From positions 89,221 to 153,220 of the forward strand of contig JAJDCG010000001.1 of the NCBI GenBank assembly GCA_029260965.1: a stretch of 64,000 nucleotides of DNA. The letters run 5' to 3'. This stretch comes from Candidatus Levyibacteriota bacterium. Lineage in GTDB: Bacteria > Patescibacteriota > Microgenomatia > Levybacterales > UBA12049. The notes under the pieces were generated by a model. That model was not told the DNA's origin and searched no databases. It saw only the letters and a list, made by a program, of their open reading frames with translations. Position numbers and translations under genes: made by a program. Shown in pieces: positions 2,884-47,996 of this stretch. Within the stretch, counting starts at the first letter, position 1. Each line of letters opens with the position of its first letter.

Positions 2884-4053
2884 CTATTGTGAGCTTAGTG
2901 CCTGAATGCCAGGGAGGGTGCCGTTTTCAATGTAGAAAAGCATTGCTCCTCCTCCAGTTGAGATATGGGTTATTTTATCTAGATATTCCTTTTTGGAGAT
3001 AGCAGCCAGAGTATCACCTCCTCCAATTACAGACATTGCTTTCTCGTTTTCTGCAATTGAATAGTAGAGAAAGTCTGTTCCTCTTTTGAAAACTGGATTT
3101 TCCATGTAGCCAACTGGTCCGTTCCAGATAATGGTGCCTGCCTGATCTATAATTTTTCCAAACTCTGCTTCCGTCTCAGGACCGATATCTAGTACTTGGT
3201 TATGTGGTTCTATTTCTTCGATTTTTTTAACCTCGCTGGTTTTTCCATTTTTGTCATTTGCAATAATCGCATCTTTAGGTAATTCAAAACGAGTTTTTTC
3301 TTCGCGTGCCAAAGATAATATTTCTTTTGCGGTTTTTATATCCTGTTCTTCAATTGGCCCATTGTCAAAACTGTGCCCCTCGGCAACCAGGAAAGCGTTA
3401 GCAAGACCTCCTCCAAGAAGAAGGTAGTCAGCAACAGTTACAAGCTTGTTTATAAATTTTATCTTGGTTCTTATTTTTTTCCCTCCGATGATTGCAACAA
3501 ACGGTTTCTTGGGATTTTTCATTACCCGATCAAGGATAGTAATTTCTTTTTTCATGAGTAAGCCTCCGTATGAAGGAAGATGTTTGGGAATTCCAACAAC
3601 TGATGCGTGCTCACGGTGACTGACACCAAAGGCATCGTTTACATAGACATCACCAAGTGTTGACAGTTCTTTGGCAAATTCAGGATCGTTTTTGGTTTCG
3701 CCTGGATAAAACCTGATGTTCTCAAGGAGTACAATGTCGTGATTATTTTTTGTTAGTCCTTCTGGGTTTTTCAAAAAATCTTTTACAAAGACTATTTTCT
3801 TATCAGGAAGGTACTCTGCAAGCCTGTTCTTGACTCTTATGAGAGAGTCATCAGAATTTCTTTTTTCAGGTTCAGATAGATGTGCAATAATCACGAGCTT
3901 GTTGTGGTTTTTGAGAAGGTATTTGATAGTAGGAAGAGATTGTTTAATTCTCTGATCATCTGCAATTGAGAGGTTAGGGTTAAGCGAGACATTAAAGTCC
4001 ACCCTTAGAAGAACAGTTTTATTTTTTATTTCAACTTCATCAACAAATTTCAT
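2884..4053 (-). CDS. pgk: phosphoglycerate kinase
   Basis: 389 aa. The N-terminus MKFVDEVEIKNKTVLLRVDFNV and an overall length and fold pattern typical of PGK. Confidence 0.85.
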   Translation of the reverse strand: MKFVDEVEIKNKTVLLRVDFNVSLNPNLSIADDQRIKQSLPTIKYLLKNHNKLVIIAHLSEPEKRNSDDSLIRVKNRLAEYLPDKKIVFVKDFLKNPEGLTKNNHDIVLLENIRFYPGETKNDPEFAKELSTLGDVYVNDAFGVSHREHASVVGIPKHLPSYGGLLMKKEITILDRVMKNPKKPFVAIIGGKKIRTKIKFINKLVTVADYLLLGGGLANAFLVAEGHSFDNGPIEEQDIKTAKEILSLAREEKTRFELPKDAIIANDKNGKTSEVKKIEEIEPHNQVLDIGPETEAEFGKIIDQAGTIIWNGPVGYMENPVFKRGTDFLYYSIAENEKAMSVIGGGDTLAAISKKEYLDKITHISTGGGAMLFYIENGTLPGIQALSSQ

Positions 4054-4115
4054 GGGGTGTGACTTGAGTATAACACAGAGTTTTGAAATAATTTAAATTA
4101 AGTTAATATAAGATT

Positions 4116-4832
4116 GTGAATCAGAACGGAAAGTTGCTACAGCTAAAAAAAGAAATAAAATCTTTTGGGAGTGCTGAGAAGGCGGAGTTTGCCAAGAGAT
4201 TTTTTAAATCAGGCAAGGGCGAGTATGGCGAGGGTGATATATTCCTCGGGCTTACCGTTCCCGAGCAGAGAAAGATCGCATCAGGTTATACTGATCTGAG
4301 TCTACCTGACCTGCAAAAGCTTCTAGATGATAGGATTCATGAGTACCGATTTGTTGCGCTGGTGATCCTAATGCACAAATATAAAAAAGCTGATAAAGAG
4401 GGCAAGAAAGAAATCTTTGATTTTTATATAAAGAATACATTGCAAGTGAATAATTGGGATTTGGTTGATGTTTCAGCACCTGGTATAGTTGGAGATTATT
4501 TATCTGACAAAGATAAAAAAATTCTTTATAGACTTGCTCGATCAAAAAATCACTGGGAAAGGAGAATTGCTATAGTCGCTACTTTCGCCTTTATCCGCAA
4601 AAATGAATTTGGGAATACTCTCGCGATTGCAGAGATATTGCTGAGTGATATGCATGATCTCATCCACAAAGCTGTTGGCTGGATGCTGCGGGAGGTTGGG
4701 ATAAGAGACGTTGGAGCACTCTACAAGTTTTTGGATAAGCATTGTAAAGTCATGCCTCGCACTACGCTCCGCTACTCGCTTGAGAAATTTGAAAAAAAGA
4801 AAAAAGAATTTTATATGGGGGGGAAAGGTTGA
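4116..4832 (+). CDS. DNA alkylation repair protein (AlkD/AlkC-like HEAT-repeat glycosylase family)
   Basis: 238 aa with an FAKRFFKSGKGEYGEGDIFLG...NNWDLVD...GWMLREVG pattern, as in the DNA_alkylation family. Confidence 0.6.
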   Translation: MNQNGKLLQLKKEIKSFGSAEKAEFAKRFFKSGKGEYGEGDIFLGLTVPEQRKIASGYTDLSLPDLQKLLDDRIHEYRFVALVILMHKYKKADKEGKKEIFDFYIKNTLQVNNWDLVDVSAPGIVGDYLSDKDKKILYRLARSKNHWERRIAIVATFAFIRKNEFGNTLAIAEILLSDMHDLIHKAVGWMLREVGIRDVGALYKFLDKHCKVMPRTTLRYSLEKFEKKKKEFYMGGKG

Positions 4833-4854
4833 ATTTTTATAGTATAATTAAATT

Positions 4855-5343
4855 ATGAACCTTGGAAAGATTGATTTTAAAAAGGATATTGAAGCAGTAC
4901 ATTTGGTTATTGCAAAAGCTTTTTCAGATACCCCAGACATGAATTTGGATATATGGTTTTCTTTTTCAGAAATGAGTAAAATTATTTTAGAAGGTAGAGG
5001 AGTTTGCTTAAAAGCTATTTCTGAAAATAAGATTGTAGGTATGATTTTTGCCAAGCAGGAGAGTCCCGTAAACGGAAAAGAAGGATTAGAGAAATGGGTA
5101 ATTGTTGTGATAGCAGTAGATCCAGATATGGCCGATAAGGGTGTTGGTTCGCTTTTACTAGCTGAGGTTGAAAAAGAGGCTCAGGATATGGGTGCTTTAA
5201 AGATGTTTGTTTATACCAATTTTGATGACGAACGAGTGATCCATTTTTATAAGAAGAATAATTATCAAGATGCTGGATATATAAAGGATTATCAATACGG
5301 TAAAGATAATTCTGCTGTCTTTCTTCTTAAATATTTAAAATAG
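4855..5343 (+). CDS. GNAT family N-acetyltransferase
   Basis: The acetyl-CoA binding region VGSLLLAEVEKEAQDMGA..VYTNFDDERVIHFYKKNNY. Confidence 0.6.
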   Translation: MNLGKIDFKKDIEAVHLVIAKAFSDTPDMNLDIWFSFSEMSKIILEGRGVCLKAISENKIVGMIFAKQESPVNGKEGLEKWVIVVIAVDPDMADKGVGSLLLAEVEKEAQDMGALKMFVYTNFDDERVIHFYKKNNYQDAGYIKDYQYGKDNSAVFLLKYLK

Positions 5344-8334: not shown

Positions 8335-10521
8335 ATGGACAAGGCATACGATCATAAGAAGTTTGAGGATGATTTATATAATTTTTGGGAGAAAAATGGT
8401 TATTTCAAGCCTGAGATAAATCCTGACGGAAAACCATATTCTATTGTTCTCCCTCCTCCAAATGTAACAGGTACGCTTCATATCGGTCATGCATTTGAAG
8501 GAACGCTTCAGGATATTGCTATTAGATATCATCGCATGCGTGGAGATAAGACCGTTTGGATTCCGGGTACAGATCATGCAGCAATTGCGACTCAGTCAAA
8601 ATTTGAAAAAGAGCTATATAAAAAGCATAAAAAATCAAGGCATGATTTTCCCCGCGAGAAATTCTTTGAGATGGTTAATGAGTTTGCAGTTTCCAATCAG
8701 GATAGAATCTTGGGACAGCTTCATAAAATAGGCTTCTCACTTGACTGGGAGAGGCTTTCTTTTACTTTAGATGAAAAGCGTGAGCTTGCAGTGCGGACTG
8801 CTTTTGAGAAGATGTACAAGGCAGGACTTATTTATAGGGGCGATCGGATAGTTAATTGGGATCCGAAAAGTCAGACAACTGTTGCGGATGATGAGATAGA
8901 GCATGTTAGTCAAAAAGATCCATTTTATTATTTCAAATATGGTCCTTTTATAATTGGAACAGTCAGACCTGAGACAAAATTTGGCGATAAATATGTGGTC
9001 ATGCACCCGAGGGACAAGAGATACAAGGATTATAAACATGGACAAAAAATTGACCTTGAATGGATAAACGGGCCAATGACAGCAACTGTTATTAAGGACG
9101 TGGCTGCGGATATGGATAAAGGATCTGGTGTTATGACGATCACCCCTGCGCACTCTGCAATTGATTTTGAAATAGCTCAAAGACATGGACTTGATATTGA
9201 AAAAGTGATTGATGATAGGGGCATACTTCTTCCAATTGCAGGGGAATTTGAGGGGCAACATATTAAAAAAGCGAGAGCATTGATAGTTGAGAAACTGAGA
9301 AAAAAAGGTCTTGTAGATAGGATAGATGAAAATTATGAGCATAATGTTTCGACAAATTATCGAGGCAACGGTATGATCGAGCCTCAGATTAAAAGACAAT
9401 GGTTTGTTGCTGTTAATAAAGAATTCCGCATTGAAAATTCGAAAATTCCAGGTATCAAATCAGGTTCAGAGGTTACACTTAAGCAAATTATGAAAAAGTC
9501 AGTTGAGGCAGGAGGCGTAAAAATCAAGCCTTTAAGGTTTGAAAAAATCTATTATCACTGGATTGATAATCTCAGAGATTGGTGTATTTCAAGACAAATT
9601 ATATATGGACACCAAATTCCTGTTTGGTACAGAAATGATGATATGTACGTTGGGCTTAAGGCACCCGAGGGAGATGGATGGAAACAGGATACAGACACCC
9701 TTGATACTTGGTTTTCCAGTGGTCTTTGGACTTTCTCAACTCTTGGTTGGCCTGAAAAAACACCAGATCTTAAAACATTTCATCCAAACTCCAATATGAT
9801 GCCAGGATATGAGATTCTTTTTTTCTGGGTTGCTCGCATGATTTTAATGAGCGGATTTTTATTGGGCGAGGTTCCTTTTAGTCGAGTTTATTTACATGGC
9901 ATTGTCCGTGACAAACAGGGAAGAAAGTTTAGTAAATCTTTAAACAATGGCATTGATCCTTTGGAGATGGTTGATAAATACGGAACCGACGCGCTTAGAA
10001 TTGCCCTTATTTTTGGTGCGGGAATTGGAAATGACGTGATGTTTGATGAGCAAAAAGTGAAGGGCATGAAGCATTTTGCCAATAAACTTTGGAATATAGC
10101 GCGGTTTATTGAAGTGAATAAGCAAAAAGCAAAAAGCAGTATGCAAAAAGCAAAAAAAATTGAGGATTTAGAAAAGATTGCAGACAATAAAATTGATAAA
10201 GAGTGGGTGAAAAAAACAGTAAATTTGATAGAAGAAGTCACAAAAAGTTTGGATAATTATAAATTTAATTTAGCTGCAGAAAGGCTTTATGAATTTATAT
10301 GGCATGAGTTTGCGGATGTTTATATAGAAGATGTTAAAAGTAGAATTGATGAAAACTCATTCTCTGTTCTCTGTTCTCTGTTTTCTGTTCAGCTAAAACT
10401 CCTTCATCCCTTCATGCCTTTTGTAACTGAGGCTATTTATCAGGAATTTCGAAAAAACGGGATCTTGACTGAGGGGAAAGAATCGATAATGATTGAGAAA
10501 TACCCTATGCTGAAATTCTAA
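8335..10521 (+). CDS. valS: valine--tRNA ligase (short form)
   Basis: A class I aaRS. The HIGH region is PPPNVTGTLHIGHAF. The KMSKS-like motif is KFSKSLNN. The editing and anticodon-binding regions are valS-like. Confidence 0.8.
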   Translation: MDKAYDHKKFEDDLYNFWEKNGYFKPEINPDGKPYSIVLPPPNVTGTLHIGHAFEGTLQDIAIRYHRMRGDKTVWIPGTDHAAIATQSKFEKELYKKHKKSRHDFPREKFFEMVNEFAVSNQDRILGQLHKIGFSLDWERLSFTLDEKRELAVRTAFEKMYKAGLIYRGDRIVNWDPKSQTTVADDEIEHVSQKDPFYYFKYGPFIIGTVRPETKFGDKYVVMHPRDKRYKDYKHGQKIDLEWINGPMTATVIKDVAADMDKGSGVMTITPAHSAIDFEIAQRHGLDIEKVIDDRGILLPIAGEFEGQHIKKARALIVEKLRKKGLVDRIDENYEHNVSTNYRGNGMIEPQIKRQWFVAVNKEFRIENSKIPGIKSGSEVTLKQIMKKSVEAGGVKIKPLRFEKIYYHWIDNLRDWCISRQIIYGHQIPVWYRNDDMYVGLKAPEGDGWKQDTDTLDTWFSSGLWTFSTLGWPEKTPDLKTFHPNSNMMPGYEILFFWVARMILMSGFLLGEVPFSRVYLHGIVRDKQGRKFSKSLNNGIDPLEMVDKYGTDALRIALIFGAGIGNDVMFDEQKVKGMKHFANKLWNIARFIEVNKQKAKSSMQKAKKIEDLEKIADNKIDKEWVKKTVNLIEEVTKSLDNYKFNLAAERLYEFIWHEFADVYIEDVKSRIDENSFSVLCSLFSVQLKLLHPFMPFVTEAIYQEFRKNGILTEGKESIMIEKYPMLKF
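10362..10389 (+). repeat. heptanucleotide tandem repeat (CTCTGTT x3 plus a variant) inside valS coding sequence
   Basis: The sequence ctctgttctctgttctctgttttctgtt encodes FSVLCSLFSVQ. Confidence 0.6.
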
Positions 10522-40220: not shown

Positions 40221-40292
40221 TCCCCTGTAGCTCAATGGTAGAGCGCGCGACTGTTAATCGCTAGGTTCGAGGTTCGAATCCTCGCGGGGGAG
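40221..40292 (+). tRNA. tRNA-Asn (anticodon GTT)
   Basis: The acceptor is TCCCCTG/CGGGGGA. D-arm GCTCAATGGTAGAGC. Anticodon loop CTGTTAA. T-arm CGAGGTTCGAATCCTCG. The CCA is not encoded. Confidence 0.85.
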
Positions 40293-40305
40293 CAAAATTG
40301 TCAAT

Positions 40306-40392
40306 TTGTAGCTCAGCGGTACCTGCCTGCCGGCAGGCAGGGAGCAGGAAGCTGCTAACTTCAAGGTCCGAGGTTCGAATCCTCGCGTGGGA
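40306..40392 (+). pseudogene. tRNA-like element / probable tRNA pseudogene with 20-nt palindromic insertion in the D-loop
   Basis: The canonical D-arm GTAGCTCAGCGGTA|GAGC is interrupted by the perfect palindrome CCTGCCTGCCGGCAGGCAGG at 40322-40341. The anticodon-like loop is CTGCTAA. The T-arm and 3' acceptor are near-identical to the tRNA-Asn 3' end, but no complementary 5' acceptor strand is present. Confidence 0.5.
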
Positions 40393-40701
40393 ATCGTAGG
40401 AAGAACAGAACTAGATTTAGACAAACAAATAGCAACCTTTGAGAAAGAAAAGGAGGTAATGTTTACAGTAAAAGATGGTTTGTACGCACATACACCAGAT
40501 GATGGTGGGTTGTTCACAATAAAGCGAGGGCCATTTAGTGTAGCGCTCGATGCGATGCTTTACTGTCGGCTAACAATGGAATATTTAACTCTTGAGAGTT
40601 TTCTCAATATTTTGGAATTTATGTATAAAATCGCTTCTCAAAGAAGAAGTGATGATGCATACTTCCCTAGATTTAGGAATGAAAACGAGTTTTGGAATTA
40701 A
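40387..40701 (+). CDS. hypothetical protein
   Basis: A 104-aa ORF beginning inside the tRNA-like element. The true start is probably an internal Met near 40459. Confidence 0.3.
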   Translation: MGIVGRTELDLDKQIATFEKEKEVMFTVKDGLYAHTPDDGGLFTIKRGPFSVALDAMLYCRLTMEYLTLESFLNILEFMYKIASQRRSDDAYFPRFRNENEFWN

Positions 40702-40734
40702 CTACGTTGCAGGAGTACGGAAAAGTGCCAAATA

Positions 40735-41730
40735 TTGATATTGAAGTACAAATATATGAGCTACTACGAACTAGAGCAAGATAAAGCCATTAGGCAATTT
40801 TTAAAGGATTTTCCTGAACCAACAAAGGACAATCTTTTTATCTTATTTCATAGCCATTTCATATACCCAGATATAGAAACTGAATTTCTAAACAAAGTTG
40901 CAAAAAATGCTATTGATGTAAGTTACGATTATTTTATTTCTCTCCCGAAAACAAAGAGATTCCATTTTTTACGAGCCTTGGGAAAATTAATAGATTCTGC
41001 CTTGTCGTTAAAAATCTGGGAATTCCAGCTCTCAAGAAATGATGCTAAGTGGTATTGGAAAGGTACCCCTACTTACTTTTTAGCATTAACACATTTAGTA
41101 GAACCTCTTGAATCTTTAAGGCACGAAATGGGATTAGTTAAAAGAAAACATTTGTATGAAAAAATTGTTTGTGTAGAGGGAGAAAGCGAACTTAGTTTTA
41201 TAAGGACTATGTATCTAACTGCAAAATATGCAAACTTTGACTTTCCTGTCTACAGCTATAGAGGGAAGGGTGAAATACAGAATTTAATACACTTTATTAA
41301 AGAAAAAAATAGGCAAGGAATAAGAGTTCTCTTATCGTACGATATGGATAGACAGTCAGACTCATTTATTAAGAACATTAAGAAAAAATGCGTTATTGAA
41401 AAAACTTTTGGGTTCAACCAAGACTTCGAAAGCTCATTCCCGCCTAAAATACTAAAGTACTCATTAGATTCCTATATCAAAAGGTACACAAAGTTAAAAA
41501 TATCATTAAATGAAAAAGATGTTGCCGACTTATTAACTCAACAAAAGCCATTTTTAAAAATATTTAGTCAAAAATATAATGTAAAAATTAACAAAGTGAA
41601 GTTTGGTGAGATAATGGGGAAAATTATGGCAGGCATACTATATCAACATTGGAACGATGTTTTTAATAAGCCCATGAAAGCACCATTTAACTATGAAATA
41701 TTTAAGTTTTTAAAATATTTAGTCACATGA
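40735..41730 (+). CDS. TOPRIM-like (DUF4435/RloB/OLD-type) domain protein with N-terminal extension
   Basis: The conserved glutamate lies in KIVCVEGESELSFIRTMY. About 55 aa later, an acidic DxD motif lies in VLLSYDMDRQSD. This is the E...DxD spacing of Toprim folds. The N-terminal ~140 aa has no recognisable domain. Confidence 0.45.
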   Translation: MILKYKYMSYYELEQDKAIRQFLKDFPEPTKDNLFILFHSHFIYPDIETEFLNKVAKNAIDVSYDYFISLPKTKRFHFLRALGKLIDSALSLKIWEFQLSRNDAKWYWKGTPTYFLALTHLVEPLESLRHEMGLVKRKHLYEKIVCVEGESELSFIRTMYLTAKYANFDFPVYSYRGKGEIQNLIHFIKEKNRQGIRVLLSYDMDRQSDSFIKNIKKKCVIEKTFGFNQDFESSFPPKILKYSLDSYIKRYTKLKISLNEKDVADLLTQQKPFLKIFSQKYNVKINKVKFGEIMGKIMAGILYQHWNDVFNKPMKAPFNYEIFKFLKYLVT

Positions 41731-42386
41731 TGTATATAATAAGCTGGCTTCAAGATAACTATGGCTGGACAATTAGTTTGGTGATACAAGGTTTTATTGC
41801 CTATCACGTTTTCTTTTTATCCCAAAGACTATCAAACAGGGAGAGGTTAAAACACAAAGATGCTATAAAAAATAAGGCAGATGAATTGTTATCAGAAATT
41901 CGGAGAAAGAAATTAAATAGTGAAGTATATTTAGTAAACATTAACAGATATTTTAAAGACTATCCATCCAACGAGAAAAGACGATTTGAAGGATATTCCC
42001 ATATCAAAGCAGAAATAAAAACTACAAGATTTGATGGCATTGAGTTTTTTGCTGAAATGCCAAGGGAAGTATATAGAAAATCAGATGGGAGCCTGTCGTT
42101 TAAGGGAAGCAAGAAAGAACATGTATTTAATGCGTTTCCAGTTGGCGTAGTGCCGTATGAATGGATAGAGCATGTGGACACTGCAGGTGATGAGTATGCC
42201 TATGTACCATTGTTCTACTGTCATTTTAAGGGAAGAACACATTGGAAATTTTGGAAACGTTTACTTTTCTTTGGGTATCCTTACAAGCAAATGCTTTATT
42301 ATCGTCTAAGTGATGTGTATAACGAAAGAAATGATCCGATGGAAATGAAGTATGCCTATATAAACGAACCTATTACTAAATCCTAA
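41727..42386 (+). CDS. hypothetical membrane-anchored protein, translationally coupled partner of the TOPRIM-like gene
   Basis: A 4-nt ATGA overlap with the upstream gene. An N-terminal TM helix (WTISLVIQGFIAYHVFFL), then a ~190-aa soluble domain with no known motif. Confidence 0.45.
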   Translation: MMYIISWLQDNYGWTISLVIQGFIAYHVFFLSQRLSNRERLKHKDAIKNKADELLSEIRRKKLNSEVYLVNINRYFKDYPSNEKRRFEGYSHIKAEIKTTRFDGIEFFAEMPREVYRKSDGSLSFKGSKKEHVFNAFPVGVVPYEWIEHVDTAGDEYAYVPLFYCHFKGRTHWKFWKRLLFFGYPYKQMLYYRLSDVYNERNDPMEMKYAYINEPITKS

Positions 42387-42856
42387 CTGACTATAGCCAT
42401 CGCTGGCCGTACTTTCTCCATTTCCTCCTTTAGTTGGTTGATGAACCTAAAATTCTCAAATACCTTGAAGATACGCACAAATTGACTGGTTATATTAACG
42501 TTACGATCCCCGAGCCAAATGGGATTTGCAGGTCGCAAATCCGGGAATTGTGCGAACAAATCAGTATATCTCTGAGGTTCGACCCAATCCTTATACTTTT
42601 CACTCCATTTTTCTTGTTCTGCAAAGGGTATGAGGTGATCATCCAGTTCTATCAATACTTTTTTGTGATTCACCTGTAAGTTCGAGCCGATGTTAAACAA
42701 TACTTCTCTTCTCGCGTCACGACCTCCAACCTTAAATTTTATAGCAGAGCCATAAGCAATATCGATTGCTTCTTCGATTTTTATTCTCCATGATGAAAGA
42801 CTGCCGTGAGCGTTTTCTATCTTGTTAATTAGGGTTTGTTTTGTTGATATGCCCAT
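42383..42856 (-). CDS. hypothetical protein
   Basis: 157 aa. Its C-terminal 30 codons are covered by repeat copy A at 42413-42503. A decayed paralogous C-terminal fragment lies at 45302-45468. Confidence 0.4.
   Translation of the reverse strand: MGISTKQTLINKIENAHGSLSSWRIKIEEAIDIAYGSAIKFKVGGRDARREVLFNIGSNLQVNHKKVLIELDDHLIPFAEQEKWSEKYKDWVEPQRYTDLFAQFPDLRPANPIWLGDRNVNITSQFVRIFKVFENFRFINQLKEEMEKVRPAMAIVS
42413..42503. repeat. ~90-nt direct repeat copy A (about 80% identical to 45362-45451)
   Basis: Shared core ttgaa.at.c.cacaaatt.actggttatattaac.ttacgatcc.cgagc. Confidence 0.6.
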
Positions 42857-43074
42857 ATTTTCGTACCTAACTCCGTATCAGCTAAACTAATTTTTTCCAC
42901 CAGGGCATTCATTCTTGAAAGCCTTCTATTTCCTGTTTGAACTCGAAACTCATGAACACGTAATTCTGTTAAGACATTTCGTGCTTCAACCACCGCTTCT
43001 CTGATTGTTTTCTTGAGGTACTCTTTATCGTTACTACCCTTCCTCTGCGGACAATTCAGCCTTTCGTTTCGCAT
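42829..43074 (-). CDS. hypothetical small protein
   Basis: An 81-aa ORF overlapping the 157-aa gene. No motif. The start is uncertain because the alternative small ORF 43037-43177 overlaps it. Confidence 0.25.
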   Translation of the reverse strand: MRNERLNCPQRKGSNDKEYLKKTIREAVVEARNVLTELRVHEFRVQTGNRRLSRMNALVEKISLADTELGTKIWAYQQNKP

Positions 43075-43177
43075 AATTCACAGCATATGCAACAATAGCT
43101 GCAAGTCCTAAGTTCATTAAAAACAAAACTGCAAAATCAGCAAAAGTAAGCGTTATCATAATCGTATTATAATCCAT
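43037..43177 (-). CDS. small hydrophobic peptide (47 aa, single TM, charged C-terminus)
   Basis: MDYNTIMITLTFADFAVLFLMNLGLAAIVAYAVNYAKRKAELSAEEG. A good SD (AGAGG, 5 nt upstream of the ATG). Not in the ORF track because it is under 60 aa. Confidence 0.35.
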
Positions 43178-43207
43178 TTGAACCTCTGATATAATCACAT
43201 CATTAGT

Positions 43208-43693
43208 ATGGAAGATGAAAATGTTAAGAAAGCCAAAGATATAATCTCAAAAATTCTTTATATCACTATTGCTACTGCTTCCAAAGATGGAACTCCTTGG
43301 AATAGCCCTGTTTATTCAGCATACGATGACGAGTATAATTTCTTTTGGGCATCAGATCAAAACGGTCAGCATTCAAAGAACATAGCGGAAAACAACAAAG
43401 TGTTTCTGGTTATTTATGACTCTACAGCAGCAGAAGGAACTGGTGAAGGAGTATATATTCAAGCAAAGACATCCATGCTTACTGATCCTGAAGAAATAGC
43501 ACATGCGCTAGAATGCCTTGATGGACGAGTGAACAAGAAGAAAGACCCCCTGTCAAGAATTGCTCAGTTTCAAGGAGACAAGCCAAGAAGGGTCTATAAA
43601 GCAGTTCCAGAAAAAGTTTGGATAAATGGTGATGGAGACGTAAATGGCGAGTATATTGATATACGGATGGAGATTGATTTACTAGGGAAATAG
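43208..43693 (+). CDS. pyridoxamine 5'-phosphate oxidase-like FMN-binding (general stress protein 26 family) protein
   Basis: ILYITIATASKDGTPWNSPVYSAYDDEYNFFWASDQNGQHSKNIAENNKVFLVIYD. Confidence 0.6.
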   Translation: MEDENVKKAKDIISKILYITIATASKDGTPWNSPVYSAYDDEYNFFWASDQNGQHSKNIAENNKVFLVIYDSTAAEGTGEGVYIQAKTSMLTDPEEIAHALECLDGRVNKKKDPLSRIAQFQGDKPRRVYKAVPEKVWINGDGDVNGEYIDIRMEIDLLGK

Positions 43694-43694
43694 T

Positions 43695-44165
43695 ATGGAC
43701 GACAAGCATTACTTACAACTAGCCATAGAACAAGCAAAAAAATCAGTTGACGAAGATGGTTTCCCAGCTGGAGCAATCATTGTCAAGAATGGGCAAGTAC
43801 TAGCTGAAGGGATTAGTGTTGGCTTCAAGAACAACGACCCAACGGGGCATGCCGAAACTTCTGCAATAAGAGCAGCTTGTCAAAAAGTAAAATCTTCTGA
43901 TTTAACAGGTGCAGTGTTGTATGAGTCCTTGGAATGTTGCAACATGTGCTTTTCGGTAGCAAATTGGGCAGGTGTATCAAAAATCGTATTTGCTTGCAAG
44001 AAGACACCTGAGATGGTAAATAAACTTTATTATGAAGGAACTACCAGTAATTATTTACTTAACCAAAGTAACAGTCATAAAATAGACCTCGTATTTATTC
44101 CTGATTTCGAGCAAGCAGCTCTAGATCTAGTTAAAAGTTGGGAGGAAAAAAACAATGGAATATAA
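43695..44165 (+). CDS. CMP/dCMP-type nucleoside/nucleotide deaminase (TadA/guanine deaminase-like)
   Basis: The zinc ligands are HAETSAIRAAC...LECCNMCFSVANWAG (H.E and PC..C). Confidence 0.7.
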   Translation: MDDKHYLQLAIEQAKKSVDEDGFPAGAIIVKNGQVLAEGISVGFKNNDPTGHAETSAIRAACQKVKSSDLTGAVLYESLECCNMCFSVANWAGVSKIVFACKKTPEMVNKLYYEGTTSNYLLNQSNSHKIDLVFIPDFEQAALDLVKSWEEKNNGI

Positions 44166-44529
44166 CAAATTAACAATAATTATTAAAAAACCACTTGCGG
44201 AAGTTTTTGCATTTTGTATTACGCCACCAAAGGCAAAACTCTGGGTGCCAAATATTATCGATGAAAAAACAAATGAGTCGCCAATTAAAGTTGGGACTGT
44301 TTATACAGAATATAAGGATGACAAGACCTCATTTAACATAATCGTTACCGATTACAGGGAGAATGATTACATCGAGTGGAAAACAGAGGATGGGAATTAT
44401 CATGTTAGATATACGTTTACATCGATTGACCAAAATACTACACAACTTGAATATGTTGAAACTGGAAATGTTGATGAGCCTTTTACTCAAGAGGTTTTGG
44501 AGAAACTTAAGGTTGTCATAGAAAGTTAA
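44155..44529 (+). CDS. SRPBCC (START/Bet v1-like, polyketide cyclase-type) domain protein
   Basis: 124 aa, IIIKKPLAEVFAFCITPPKAKLWVPNI...YIEWKTEDGNYHVRYTF. Confidence 0.5.
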   Translation: MEYNKLTIIIKKPLAEVFAFCITPPKAKLWVPNIIDEKTNESPIKVGTVYTEYKDDKTSFNIIVTDYRENDYIEWKTEDGNYHVRYTFTSIDQNTTQLEYVETGNVDEPFTQEVLEKLKVVIES

Positions 44530-44666
44530 ATTGAGAGCAATGTTTTTGTCTGTTGCATAACAACATCAGGATAATCAATAATCTCTAACCAGTTGGAGCC
44601 GTAGAAATCGTTCCACTTGGGGAGCATAATTAATTTGGCCTTGAAATTAATCAACCCAGTTAATAT

Positions 44667-45305
44667 TTAATATAGCCTTTGGCTACATGAGGCAGACCCA
44701 AGCCATGTATGTGGATTGCCATCCCAACACCACCCAAGATTTGGTTGTTTTTTTGAATTTAGCCATATAGCTGGAACTCTTTTATTCCCTTTGCATCGAG
44801 ATGCTAAAAGCGAAAAGCAATTATTTTTCATCAAAAATTTAGGATAGTGAGTAATGATTGCAACTCCCTCATCAATGGTTAATGGGAAACGACTATCTTT
44901 AGCTATTAAGTCAAATGCTTCATTTGGTGGGAGATTTATGTTTAGTTTCCCTCTGTCTATGTTGAGACACATATAAACGTTTTGTTTTGGAATAGGTACA
45001 TCCTTTATTGGACTGAAATTTCTGGGTTCATGTGGGTAGAGTTTTATTATTCCATCTTTGCCGTCTTTGCTGGCGTGTGTCATGGCAAACTCCGTCGAGA
45101 CAAATTTGTTTGATACGACAATTACAAAAGGTAGTGTGCCTTTTTCGTAATCAATATCATATGTTGCTGAGTCCACCTTCATTATAAGTGGTTCTACTAT
45201 AGCCTTGAATTTCTCTCTGGATAAATTTGCTGCTTCGGGGTAGCCGTTATCCAGCAAATTATCCAGCTGTCGTTTAAACTCCAAATGTAATATGTCTTGT
45301 TTCAT
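44667..45305 (-). CDS. hypothetical protein
   Basis: 212-aa ORF. Its ATG overlaps the stop of the upstream pseudogene fragment (ATGA). No assignable domain. The 3' boundary is uncertain. Confidence 0.4.
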   Translation of the reverse strand: MKQDILHLEFKRQLDNLLDNGYPEAANLSREKFKAIVEPLIMKVDSATYDIDYEKGTLPFVIVVSNKFVSTEFAMTHASKDGKDGIIKLYPHEPRNFSPIKDVPIPKQNVYMCLNIDRGKLNINLPPNEAFDLIAKDSRFPLTIDEGVAIITHYPKFLMKNNCFSLLASRCKGNKRVPAIWLNSKKQPNLGWCWDGNPHTWLGSASCSQRLY

Positions 45306-45468
45306 ATATAAATAATAGCATTTATCCCTGTATAGGAACTACTACTGGCTTCACTTTGTTCATTTTTTCTTAGTTGGCCAGTAAACTTGAAATCTTCAAA
45401 CATCTTGAATATGCACACAAATTTACTGGTTATATTAACCTTACGATCCTCGAGCTCAACCAAAAGTT
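45302..45468 (-). pseudogene. C-terminal gene fragment paralogous to the 3' end of gene 42383-42856 (repeat copy B)
   Basis: The minus-strand translation ELLVELEDRKVNITSKFVCIFKMFEDFKFTGQLRKNEQ... matches WLGDRNVNITSQFVRIFKVFENFRFINQLKEEMEK. The frame opens straight after an in-frame TAG stop and the first in-frame Met is the internal M of KMFEDF. Confidence 0.5.
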
Positions 45469-45493: not shown

Positions 45494-45994
45494 ATGAGTA
45501 AACTAATTACATGCATTTGGTTTGCGGGCAATGACGGAGAAGAGGCAGCAAACTACTACATAGATACTTTTAATTCTGCACCAGGTGATCACAGTGCAAA
45601 AATAGGAGATATTACAAAATCTCCTAAAGCATCAGAAGAAGTTTCCGGAAGACCTGAAGGATCTGTTATGACAGCTGAATACGAGCTTGATGGAATAAGC
45701 TTCATGGCTCTCAATGGTGGTCCTGTTGATCAATTCAAACTTAACGGCGCAACTTCATATATTGTGGAGTGCGAAACACAAGAAGAAATTGATTTCTTCT
45801 GGGAAAAACTTTCAGCAGATCCTGAAGCTGGACAATGCGGATGGTGTCAAGACCGCTTCGGTGTCACATGGCAAATAGTTCCAAGGATTTTGGATGAACT
45901 GATGAGAGATCCTCAAAAAGCTGAGGCAGTAACCGCTGCTTTTATGCCAATGAAGAAAATTGACCTTGAAACAATCCGAAAAGCCGGCGAATAA
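45494..45994 (+). CDS. VOC-superfamily (PhnB/3-demethylubiquinone-9 3-methyltransferase-like) protein
   Basis: MSKLITCIWFAGNDGEEAANYYIDTF...GQCGWCQDRFGVTWQIVP. The start was set at the internal ATG at 45494. The upstream extension of the longer ORF is the repeat. Confidence 0.7.
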   Translation: MSKLITCIWFAGNDGEEAANYYIDTFNSAPGDHSAKIGDITKSPKASEEVSGRPEGSVMTAEYELDGISFMALNGGPVDQFKLNGATSYIVECETQEEIDFFWEKLSADPEAGQCGWCQDRFGVTWQIVPRILDELMRDPQKAEAVTAAFMPMKKIDLETIRKAGE

Positions 45995-47102: not shown

Positions 47103-47996
47103 ATGTCAAATAAAAAAATTGTCCCTCATCTATGGTTTGATACTCAGGCTGTTGAAGCAGCTGATTTTTATGTATCGACATTTGGTGAAGGATCAAAAGT
47201 TACCAACAAGTATAAACTTCACAATACGCCATCAGGAGATGTAGACACAGTGAGCTTCAATCTCTTGGGAATAGATTTTATGGCAATTTCAGCTGGACCT
47301 TTTTTCAAATTTAATCCATCAATTTCATTTATTGTTGGCTGCGAAACCAAAGAGGAGGTAAATAGACTCTGGGAAAAATTATCAGAAGGCGGAAAGACGC
47401 TTATGCCTCTTGATAAATATCCATTTTCTGAACGCTTTGGCTGGATTCAGGATAAATTTGGCCTTTCATGGCAGCTAATCTTTACACATCCTGAGGGTGA
47501 TCAAAGACCCAGAATTGTCCCAGCTCTTCTTTTTACAAATGAAGTTTCTGGAAAGGCAGATGAGGCGATTAGGTTCTATTTATCTGTTTTTAAAGATTCC
47601 AAGATGGGCAGCAAAATGACTTACGGACCAGATCAAAAACCAGAAAAAGAAGGAAATATCATGTTTGCTGACTTCCAGCTTTTTGACACATGGATGGCTG
47701 CAATGGATAGCTCTCTAGATCACAAATTCAATTTCGGTGAAGCAATCTCATTTATCCTTAACTGTGATACGCAGGAAGAAATAGATTATTATTGGGAGAA
47801 ATTATCTTTTGTTCCAGAATCAGAGCAATGCGGCTGGCTCAAGGATAAGTATGGTATCAGCTGGCAGATTATTCCAAAGATTCTTGACGAGATGCTTGAG
47901 AAAGGTAGCAAAGAGCAGGCAGAACGTGTCACACAAGCCTTTCTTAAAATGAAAAAATTTGATATCAAAAAACTCAAAAAGGCTTATACTAAATAA
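47103..47996 (+). CDS. tandem-domain VOC/PhnB-like protein
   Basis: There are two repeats, each with the pattern [18 protein letters not shown]...[14 protein letters not shown]. The second repeat has [16 protein letters not shown]. Confidence 0.7.

Follow-up and report, generated by a model that had tools for sequence, protein, structure and literature searches.

An ATPase-less OLD-type Toprim gene and an undescribed nuclease-associated protein family at a decayed mobile locus beside tRNA-Asn in Candidatus Levyibacteriota

Two overlapping genes, here called G1 and G2, lie downstream of a tRNA-Asn gene in a 64,000-nucleotide (nt) stretch of a Candidatus Levyibacteriota genome (GenBank assembly GCA_029260965.1, contig JAJDCG010000001.1, positions 89,221 to 153,220), which is referred to as the window and in whose numbering coordinates are given unless another locus is named. 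G1 (40735..41730, plus strand) encodes 331 amino acids (aa) when read from a TTG codon, and G2 (41727..42386, plus strand) encodes 219 aa; the two open reading frames (ORFs) share the 4-base ATGA overlap described in an earlier note made from the sequence alone. G1 is a new member of a known superfamily, the OLD-type Toprim proteins, whose unusual feature is the absence of an ATPase. G2 carries a domain that belongs to an undescribed, horizontally spreading family, found elsewhere next to, or fused with, a variety of nuclease and restriction-modification (R-M) components.

The tRNA-Asn locus and its mobile-element remnants

The order of features at the locus is tRNA-Asn, tRNA remnant, truncated gene, G1, G2 and integrase stub, and G1 and G2 are the only genes of the former element that are still intact. 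The left edge of the variable patch is formed by an intact tRNA-Asn (GTT) gene at 40221..40293 (+), which was called by ARAGORN and scores 68.7 bits against the Rfam tRNA model. It is followed on the same strand by a tRNA-like remnant at 40307..40387, which scores 34.8 bits, above the threshold, and covers model positions 6-65 only, so that the tRNA gene and decayed copy reported earlier are both borne out. The remnant has a class I body with a GCU anticodon loop, its D-loop carries a 21-nt palindromic insert with the perfect 20-nt palindrome CCTGCCTGCCGGCAGGCAGG, and its acceptor stem cannot form. Its T arm and the T arm of tRNA-Asn share an exact 18-mer, which occurs twice in the window, and the similarity between the two elements was also recovered as direct repeat D3. 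Because its 3' end abuts the truncation point of the adjoining gene fragment, the element may be an old recombination site.

This fragment (40393..40701, +) corresponds to the final 102 codons of a gene for a 477-aa protein, at 81% tblastn identity to residues 376-477 of the product of positions 3540-4973 in locus L003, one of the comparison loci, which are designated by L numbers. Since the full 477-aa version is intact upstream of G1 in L003, the fragment is regarded as a truncated pseudogene. The 477-aa gene and a 171-aa ORF overlapping its start (L003 3028-4973) precede G1 and G2 there in a tight four-gene string. The 477-aa protein was considered as a "missing partner" of G1 and rejected, as it has no Pfam or PDB match and was seen in no examined locus other than L003 and, as the fragment, the window.

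Window positions 40398-42361 are colinear with L003 (blastn, 83% identity). What remains of a large serine recombinase gene, a stub of its final ~43 codons (42386..42515, minus strand), converges on G2 and forms the C-terminus of a chimeric 157-aa ORF, and a second copy of the stub (45302..45456, minus strand) is recovered as direct repeat D1 at 80% identity. The last 43 residues of the 157-aa ORF are 84% identical to the C-terminus of a 540-aa protein in L002, which matches TP901-1 and A118 serine integrases and resolvases and represents an intact recombinase gene. A 113-nt segment after G2 (42403-42515) has its second copy at 45342-45456, and synteny with L003 is taken up again at 45462, so that the window has, relative to L003, a 2.9-kb insertion between the two copies. 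The stub following G2 is also present in L002 (6112-6224), L003 (6818-6930) and L044 (6810-6932), and L044, like the window, has two, the second at 8963-9073. Taken together, the arrangement looks like repeated insertion or recombination at the ~113-nt stub sequence. The paired stubs flank a few kb of unrelated genes, which in the window (42516-45341) are annotated as PNPOx, deaminase, DUF3284 and DUF5701. In seven loci, an integrase-like ORF is found no more than four genes away from G2. When the window was searched for an intact recombinase with flanking attachment repeats, it yielded two 43-codon C-terminal stubs only; it is the remnant of a large-serine-recombinase element and not a functional element. 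The pseudogene fragments and repeats that had been noted in this patch are thus real, and mark a decayed mobile or defence-type locus beside the tRNA. The G+C content of this part of the window reaches its minimum, 0.31 versus ~0.38, at 41-42 kb.

G1, an OLD-type Toprim protein

G1 is numbered from the ATG at 40756 (324 aa), the equivalent of which is the start used by all 29 homologues. The N-terminal extension proposed for the protein is present, at a length of ~133 aa from this start and not the ~140 aa first estimated. It consists of residues 1-133 (40756..41154, +), an all-helical domain with no match to a P-loop family, which occupies the place of the ATPase in OLD proteins. The remainder, residues 134-324 (41155..41730, +), is the putative catalytic region, with a Toprim core followed by a helical domain, as in the OLD type.

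The Toprim assignment, which the earlier note had made from a Glu in VCVEGESE and a DxD in SYDMDRQSD, has held up under several tests. The acidic residues of both motifs (E141 and E145 in the first, D196 and D198 in the second) are invariant in an alignment of 22 homologues with identity down to 40%, in which E141, G142, E145, D196, D198, E225 and K280 do not vary. The window protein itself matches Pfam OLD-like_TOPRIM (PF20469) below threshold (E 0.0033, 18.4 bits versus a cut-off of 23.2), its residues 135-198 aligning with model positions 4-67 of 67, and it has further weak matches to DUF3226, PADLOC HEC-01B and mad4. Within the family, PF20469 is matched by 19 of the 22 members at E<0.01 (best 6e-6) and DUF3226 by 10. 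No sequence match was obtained to the DUF4435 or AriB models, or between the family profile and PDB sequences. The predicted structure contains the four-stranded parallel beta sheet flanked by helices that defines a Toprim fold, and 154 of its residues superpose on the C-terminal region of Bp OLD, the class 2 OLD protein from Burkholderia pseudomallei (PDB 6NK8), in a global superposition, which is not a residue-level correspondence. The two-metal site of Bp OLD is composed of E400, E404, D455, D457, T506/E508 and K562 (PMC6755086). The spacing of the acidic residues and lysine is closely similar in the two proteins: E-x3-E in both, 55 residues from Glu to DxD in both, and 55 in G1 (E225 to K280) versus 54 in Bp OLD (E508 to K562) from the acidic residue to the Lys. 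From this spacing and the global superposition we infer that G1 has the complete set of OLD catalytic residues, and the predicted fold together with the conserved residues suggests that the protein is a metal-dependent, two-metal nuclease of the OLD/Toprim type.

G1 nevertheless differs from class 2 OLD in several respects. It has no N-terminal ABC ATPase, and an unrelated 133-residue helical domain is found instead; no UvrD-like helicase gene follows it, the next gene being G2 in the window and other small genes elsewhere; and by sequence it stays below the Pfam threshold and without a PDB match. A conserved ATPase partner was sought and rejected. The window has no ATPase gene beside G1, whose neighbour is an uncharacterised, predicted membrane-anchored protein, as had been pointed out, and in the other 9 distinct G1 loci there is no ATPase gene among those adjacent ORFs that carry an annotation, nor is any neighbour conserved from one locus to another. 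The sole ATPase seen at a G1 locus is that of L044, four genes upstream, and it pairs with an HNH gene. By comparison, an ABC ATPase is the partner of, or is fused to, AriB of PARIS, HEC-01B and GajA of Gabija (AriA, HEC-01A and the GajA N-terminus, respectively), and because such combinations of ABC ATPase and Toprim, OLD among them, are the norm (bioRxiv 10.1101/2024.01.29.577857), the absence of an ATPase in G1 is unusual; G1 differs from all three in lacking a conserved ATPase neighbour in its 10 distinct loci. G1 suggests that an OLD catalytic region can exist without an ATPase, which bears on the role of the ATPase in OLD, Gabija and PARIS. The possibility that G1 is a phage gene was discarded, as it has no PHROG match and no IMG/VR match.

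The G2 family, its fusions and its neighbours

G2 comprises a membrane helix at residues 13-31 (41763-41819), a long helix extending to residue 61 and a beta-rich domain at residues 62-219 (41910-42383); its AlphaFold2 model has a pLDDT of 82.8. The N-terminal transmembrane helix suggested earlier agrees with the hydrophobic character of residues 13-31, for which the median Kyte-Doolittle 19-residue score is 1.7 over 40 homologues. As the hydrophobic helix is followed by a basic stretch rich in Arg and Lys, G2 is predicted to be a single-pass protein with its N-terminus outside and its C-terminal domain in the cytoplasm. The statement that G2 has no known motif likewise stands: no match was found in Pfam, NCBIfam, PADLOC, including its HEC candidates, or PHROGs. 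Moreover, the predicted domain has no PDB fold match among solved structures, and the family profile has no match among PDB sequences.

Homologues at E<=1e-3 number 176, with identities of 54-88%, and carry names such as Patescibacteria, Pacebacteria and Shapirobacteria. Some metagenome-assembled genomes with close relatives of this locus (L002-L006 and L011; up to 88% protein identity) are labelled as uncultured Gammaproteobacteria or Pseudomonadales, and these labels look unreliable. The mean column identity is 66% in 40 sequences across very different lineages. An exhaustive HMMER profile search extended the family to 238 clusters at 50% identity, 81 of them at E<=1e-10, with most members 190-250 aa in length; an N-terminal hydrophobic helix is present in 64 of 109 near-full-length representatives, and most of the others have an amphipathic one. 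More distant relatives occur on plasmids. On a Paracoccus plasmid, a relative of 26% identity comes directly behind a type ISP R-M enzyme and has a convergent recombinase gene downstream of it, and on a Pseudarthrobacter plasmid another is surrounded by TIR, caspase-family, recombinase and RelA/SpoT-like genes; the family is therefore not confined to Patescibacteria. Without a model in any of the four libraries and without a solved fold relative, a domain of this breadth deserves a family model.

Three other identities were tried for G2 and rejected. For a PD-(D/E)xK nuclease, the candidate ExK motif is not conserved, homologues having D, G or Y at the position of E96, and there is no nuclease fold match; for a PUA/EVE-like reader of modified bases, an idea derived from the Mrr and HNH fusions described below, there is no fold support; and for a phage gene, there is no PHROG or INPHARED match and one distant IMG/VR match.

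Among longer family members, the region equal to residues ~30-170 of G2 forms the C-terminal part of fusion proteins. It is joined to Mrr_cat in P0273 and P0283, with a similar N-terminus in P0263, to HNH in P0235 and P0295, and to a MerR helix-turn-helix (HTH) domain in P0244, and in these the Mrr, HNH or MerR domain stands in place of the G2 membrane helix. Because the fusions are spread over different clusters at 50% identity, a single gene-calling error does not account for the architecture. A TIR-like N-terminus was considered for the fusion protein P0250 on the basis of a motif, and this was dropped, as neither Pfam nor PDB yielded a match. Sensor or regulatory domains that are joined to effectors usually have a layout in which the C-terminal domain is constant and the N-terminal nuclease or membrane part varies.

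This layout could also mean that G2 is itself an effector. CBASS Cap15 and Pycsar PycTM are sensor-effector defence proteins with membrane-helix effectors, and G2 resembles them, by analogy, in its N-terminal membrane helix and C-terminal beta-rich domain, the relatives' domain being joined to nucleases. In such an abortive-infection protein, the beta domain would bind a signal, the helix would oligomerise and the membrane would be damaged, while the neighbouring nucleases would act as parallel defences. Near-invariant polar residues in the helix (N11, Y26 and H27 across 40 sequences), unusual for a passive anchor, are consistent with this, as is the exchange of membrane helix, Mrr and HNH on a constant C-terminal domain. 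However, no nucleotide cyclase or other signal-making gene is present among the annotated neighbours in the ~45 G2 loci, G2 has no detectable fold or sequence similarity to Cap15 and PycTM, or fold similarity to any solved structure, and a single helix would be a weak pore former. A membrane effector is accordingly an improbable identity for G2.

The neighbours of G2 are diverse. The gene upstream of G2 runs in the same direction and lies within 40 nt or overlaps in ~24 of 37 loci, and its identity differs from case to case. R-M components are frequent at this position, namely HsdS (L023, L026, L068-73), an N6_N4 methylase (L016, L020, L028), a Dam methylase (L017) and a type III Res helicase (L031, L034). 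The position is otherwise taken by AbiU2-HEPN (L004), a HEPN gene with a Schlafen AlbA_2 protein before it, in an island that also contains HinfI R-M and LexA (L056/57), HNH_2 (L007), an HNH-like protein recognised by motif only (L039), an NYN-domain protein (L011; from an aggregated Pfam scan, the locus being assigned by its N-terminal motif), SET (L002), HTH (L010) or a 1379-aa STAND NTPase (L006). Downstream of G2, HsdR occurs in L026, L032, L021 and L068-71, and Res in L020 (with an endonuclease domain), L028 and L038. The gene order HsdM-NYN-x-HsdS-G2-HsdR is found in L068-L073. In these loci (for example L068, 508-8292), on groundwater Patescibacteria-like contigs, the type I operon contains three embedded genes, for an NYN nuclease, a 161-aa Cys-rich uncharacterised protein and a G2 homologue, and in L072/73 a Fic gene lies upstream of the type I operon. 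It was also asked whether the small uncharacterised upstream partners form one hidden family; they share no mutual BLAST similarity, and the idea was rejected.

Genes embedded in defence operons are often defence genes themselves, and guilt-by-embedding has a tested record as a route to such genes (Payne et al., bioRxiv 10.1101/2024.01.29.577857). G2 homologues resemble the genes of Payne et al. 2024 in their placement, which in type I and III systems is between S or M and R genes and in a further case behind a type ISP enzyme, and differ in having no PADLOC model, HEC models included, and in being small and membrane-anchored, with no recognisable enzymatic domain. The association of G2 with nuclease and R-M genes is strong, not absolute, and the fusions together with these pairings in trans are the reason why G2 is read as a generic nuclease-associated module, one that may activate, inhibit or localise the nuclease.

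The same positions suggest another role. The place directly upstream of R genes is the classic place of controller genes, and G2 occupies it in type I and III operons; in addition, it stands directly downstream of small stand-alone nucleases, in pairs that resemble toxin-antitoxin pairs, and its high conservation would fit a partner of conserved cell components. G2 could thus be an immunity, antitoxin or controller-like factor that restrains or delays the adjacent nuclease, for example on entry into a new host. Against this, a single protein would need to keep nucleases of unrelated structure in check (Toprim, HEPN, HNH and PD-(D/E)xK), no DNA-binding motif is present in G2, unlike C proteins, and G1 often occurs without it. 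Such a factor is considered quite improbable.

Co-occurrence of G1 and G2 and the role of G2

The earlier note had suggested that the two genes could be an undescribed pair and named conserved co-occurrence in other genomes as a test, and conservation of the pair was examined from both sides. One genome per species was scanned with the G2 alignment, which gave 38 loci, and among these the G1 profile matched in L003 only. Further G1-G2 loci, L044 and L061, came from G1 look-ups, and in L005 ~39 nt from the G1 3' end persist ahead of G2. G1 is therefore upstream in only 5 of ~45 distinct G2 loci (the window, L003, L044, L061 and, as the remnant, L005). Seen from G1, four of 10 distinct loci have G2 downstream (the window, L003, L044 and L061) and six do not (L040, L041, L042/43, L045, L047 and L049). 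The neighbours in these six are heterogeneous and comprise membrane proteins (one four-helix, one multi-pass), Eco57I-type methylases, a fragment of a serine recombinase and an opposite-strand GlmS, and defence-type surroundings are represented by the Eco57I-type methylases in L041 and by BrnT in L047. In L044, the genes upstream of G1 and G2 (308-2429) are an HTH gene, an ABC-type ATPase gene (AAA_15/AAA_21 matches) and an HNH gene; the ATPase and HNH arrangement is possibly Septu-like, and three uncharacterised genes lie between it and G1.

These counts tell against a dedicated, co-evolving pair in which the Toprim nuclease has its own membrane sensor or effector in place of an ATPase partner. 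The ATGA overlap and the recurrence of the same pair in four loci speak for it; however, six of the 10 G1 loci are without G2 and ~40 of the 45 G2 loci without G1. The dedicated pair is thus largely refuted and has become very improbable. What survives of the proposed undescribed nuclease and membrane protein is a modified form, in which G2 would be the constant partner of interchangeable nucleases, and a more general, testable idea of a promiscuous nuclease-associated module takes over. In this view, G1 with G2 would be one combination of exchangeable components for defence and not a new system of fixed make-up. In loci that have both genes, G2 is the slower-evolving member: between the window and L044, G1 is 65% and G2 82% identical, and between the window and the L061 pair (P0004/P0030) the values are 65% and 88%.

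The two genes could also be independent neighbours, that is, separate single-gene cargo or defence modules brought together in a recombination hot spot, with the ATGA overlap reflecting the compaction of a tiny genome. Each gene is mostly found without the other, and overlaps of the ATGA type are not specific to G1, as G2 abuts or overlaps unrelated upstream genes likewise (HsdS, Mod, Res and HEPN genes); moreover, in L035/36, L033 and L018 the genes on both sides of G2 are on the opposite strand, so that it stands by itself. On the other hand, the order of G1 and G2 and their tight junction are kept in the four loci even though the G1 proteins are only 65% identical, L005 retains the trace of a former G1, and the fusions in cis suggest a functional link of the G2 domain with nucleases in general. 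Independence of the two genes is the main rival reading and is rated somewhat unlikely.

The reading favoured here, tentatively and at slightly less than an even chance, sees the locus as a mobile defence islet in decay, with G2 as a general-purpose module for sensing or regulation and G1 as one of the nucleases that can be exchanged around it. In this scheme, two intact and translationally coupled genes would be what is left of a small mobile defence islet beside tRNA-Asn. G1 would keep the whole OLD catalytic region, with the 133-residue helical domain replacing the ABC ATPase, and, of its Toprim core and the helical domain that follows, the latter would supply the second-metal Glu and the Lys. 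The G2 domain would sense or gate, responding to an infection cue or to the state of the cell, and would control the adjacent nuclease, here G1, at the membrane, perhaps through contact with it and by either activation or inhibition. The G2 family as a whole would be a plug-in module, coupled to HEPN, HNH, NYN, Toprim and methylase genes or placed within R-M operons. A stronger version, which is rather doubtful, holds that the helix-plus-beta domain of G2 represents a new sensor or regulatory class gating many unrelated nucleases, in trans as a membrane-anchored and translationally coupled partner (of Toprim, HEPN, HNH, NYN and the R subunits of type I, III and ISP enzymes) or in cis when fused to Mrr or HNH domains, and that G1 and G2 form a working two-part system. 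The family would in that case amount to a modular layer of immunity that is widespread, above all among Patescibacteria.

Several observations weigh against the islet reading. Since G1 and G2 each occur mostly apart, their specific physical partnership is unproven. The column identity of G2 is atypical for a sensor contacting fast-evolving phage proteins. In 45 of the 109 near-full-length representatives the N-terminus is not clearly hydrophobic, so that anchoring is not universal. Many G2 neighbours are uncharacterised or housekeeping genes, such as those of L062-67 with GatCAB and LemA, and the counts of defence-gene neighbours are raw, set against no formal background; recurring uncharacterised genes are common in defence islands. 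Furthermore, the window copy lies in a decayed locus, with a truncated upstream gene and integrase stubs, and its expression might be lost.

Patescibacteria have tiny genomes and few recognised defence systems. A conserved module that spreads horizontally and joins restriction enzymes as well as small nucleases would fill a gap in the picture of how nucleases are controlled in these bacteria and in other bacteria with distant G2 relatives on plasmids. Two defence proteins of unknown fold that are restricted to Patescibacteria, LdgA and DdgA, were obtained by functional selection and reported in 2025 (PMC12366544). Their description would also fit G2, and it may be that one of the two is G2 or G1, the comparison being by description only.

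As to the expression of the two genes, promoter and terminator scans of the region gave results no better than shuffled sequence. Two sigma-70-like hexamer pairs, with 10/12 matches each, are located in the 3' end of G1 at 41553-41615 (+), 110-170 nt before the start of G2, and could be a promoter of G2's own, the regional total of such sites being no higher than in shuffled sequence. Farther downstream, a 71%-identical direct repeat (45734-45818 and 47304-47388, +) lies within two neighbouring, apparently paralogous ORFs, and the L003 homologue of the 45734-45818 copy is the probable source of the single PF06983 (3-demethylubiquinone-9 3-methyltransferase-like) match in the aggregated scan.

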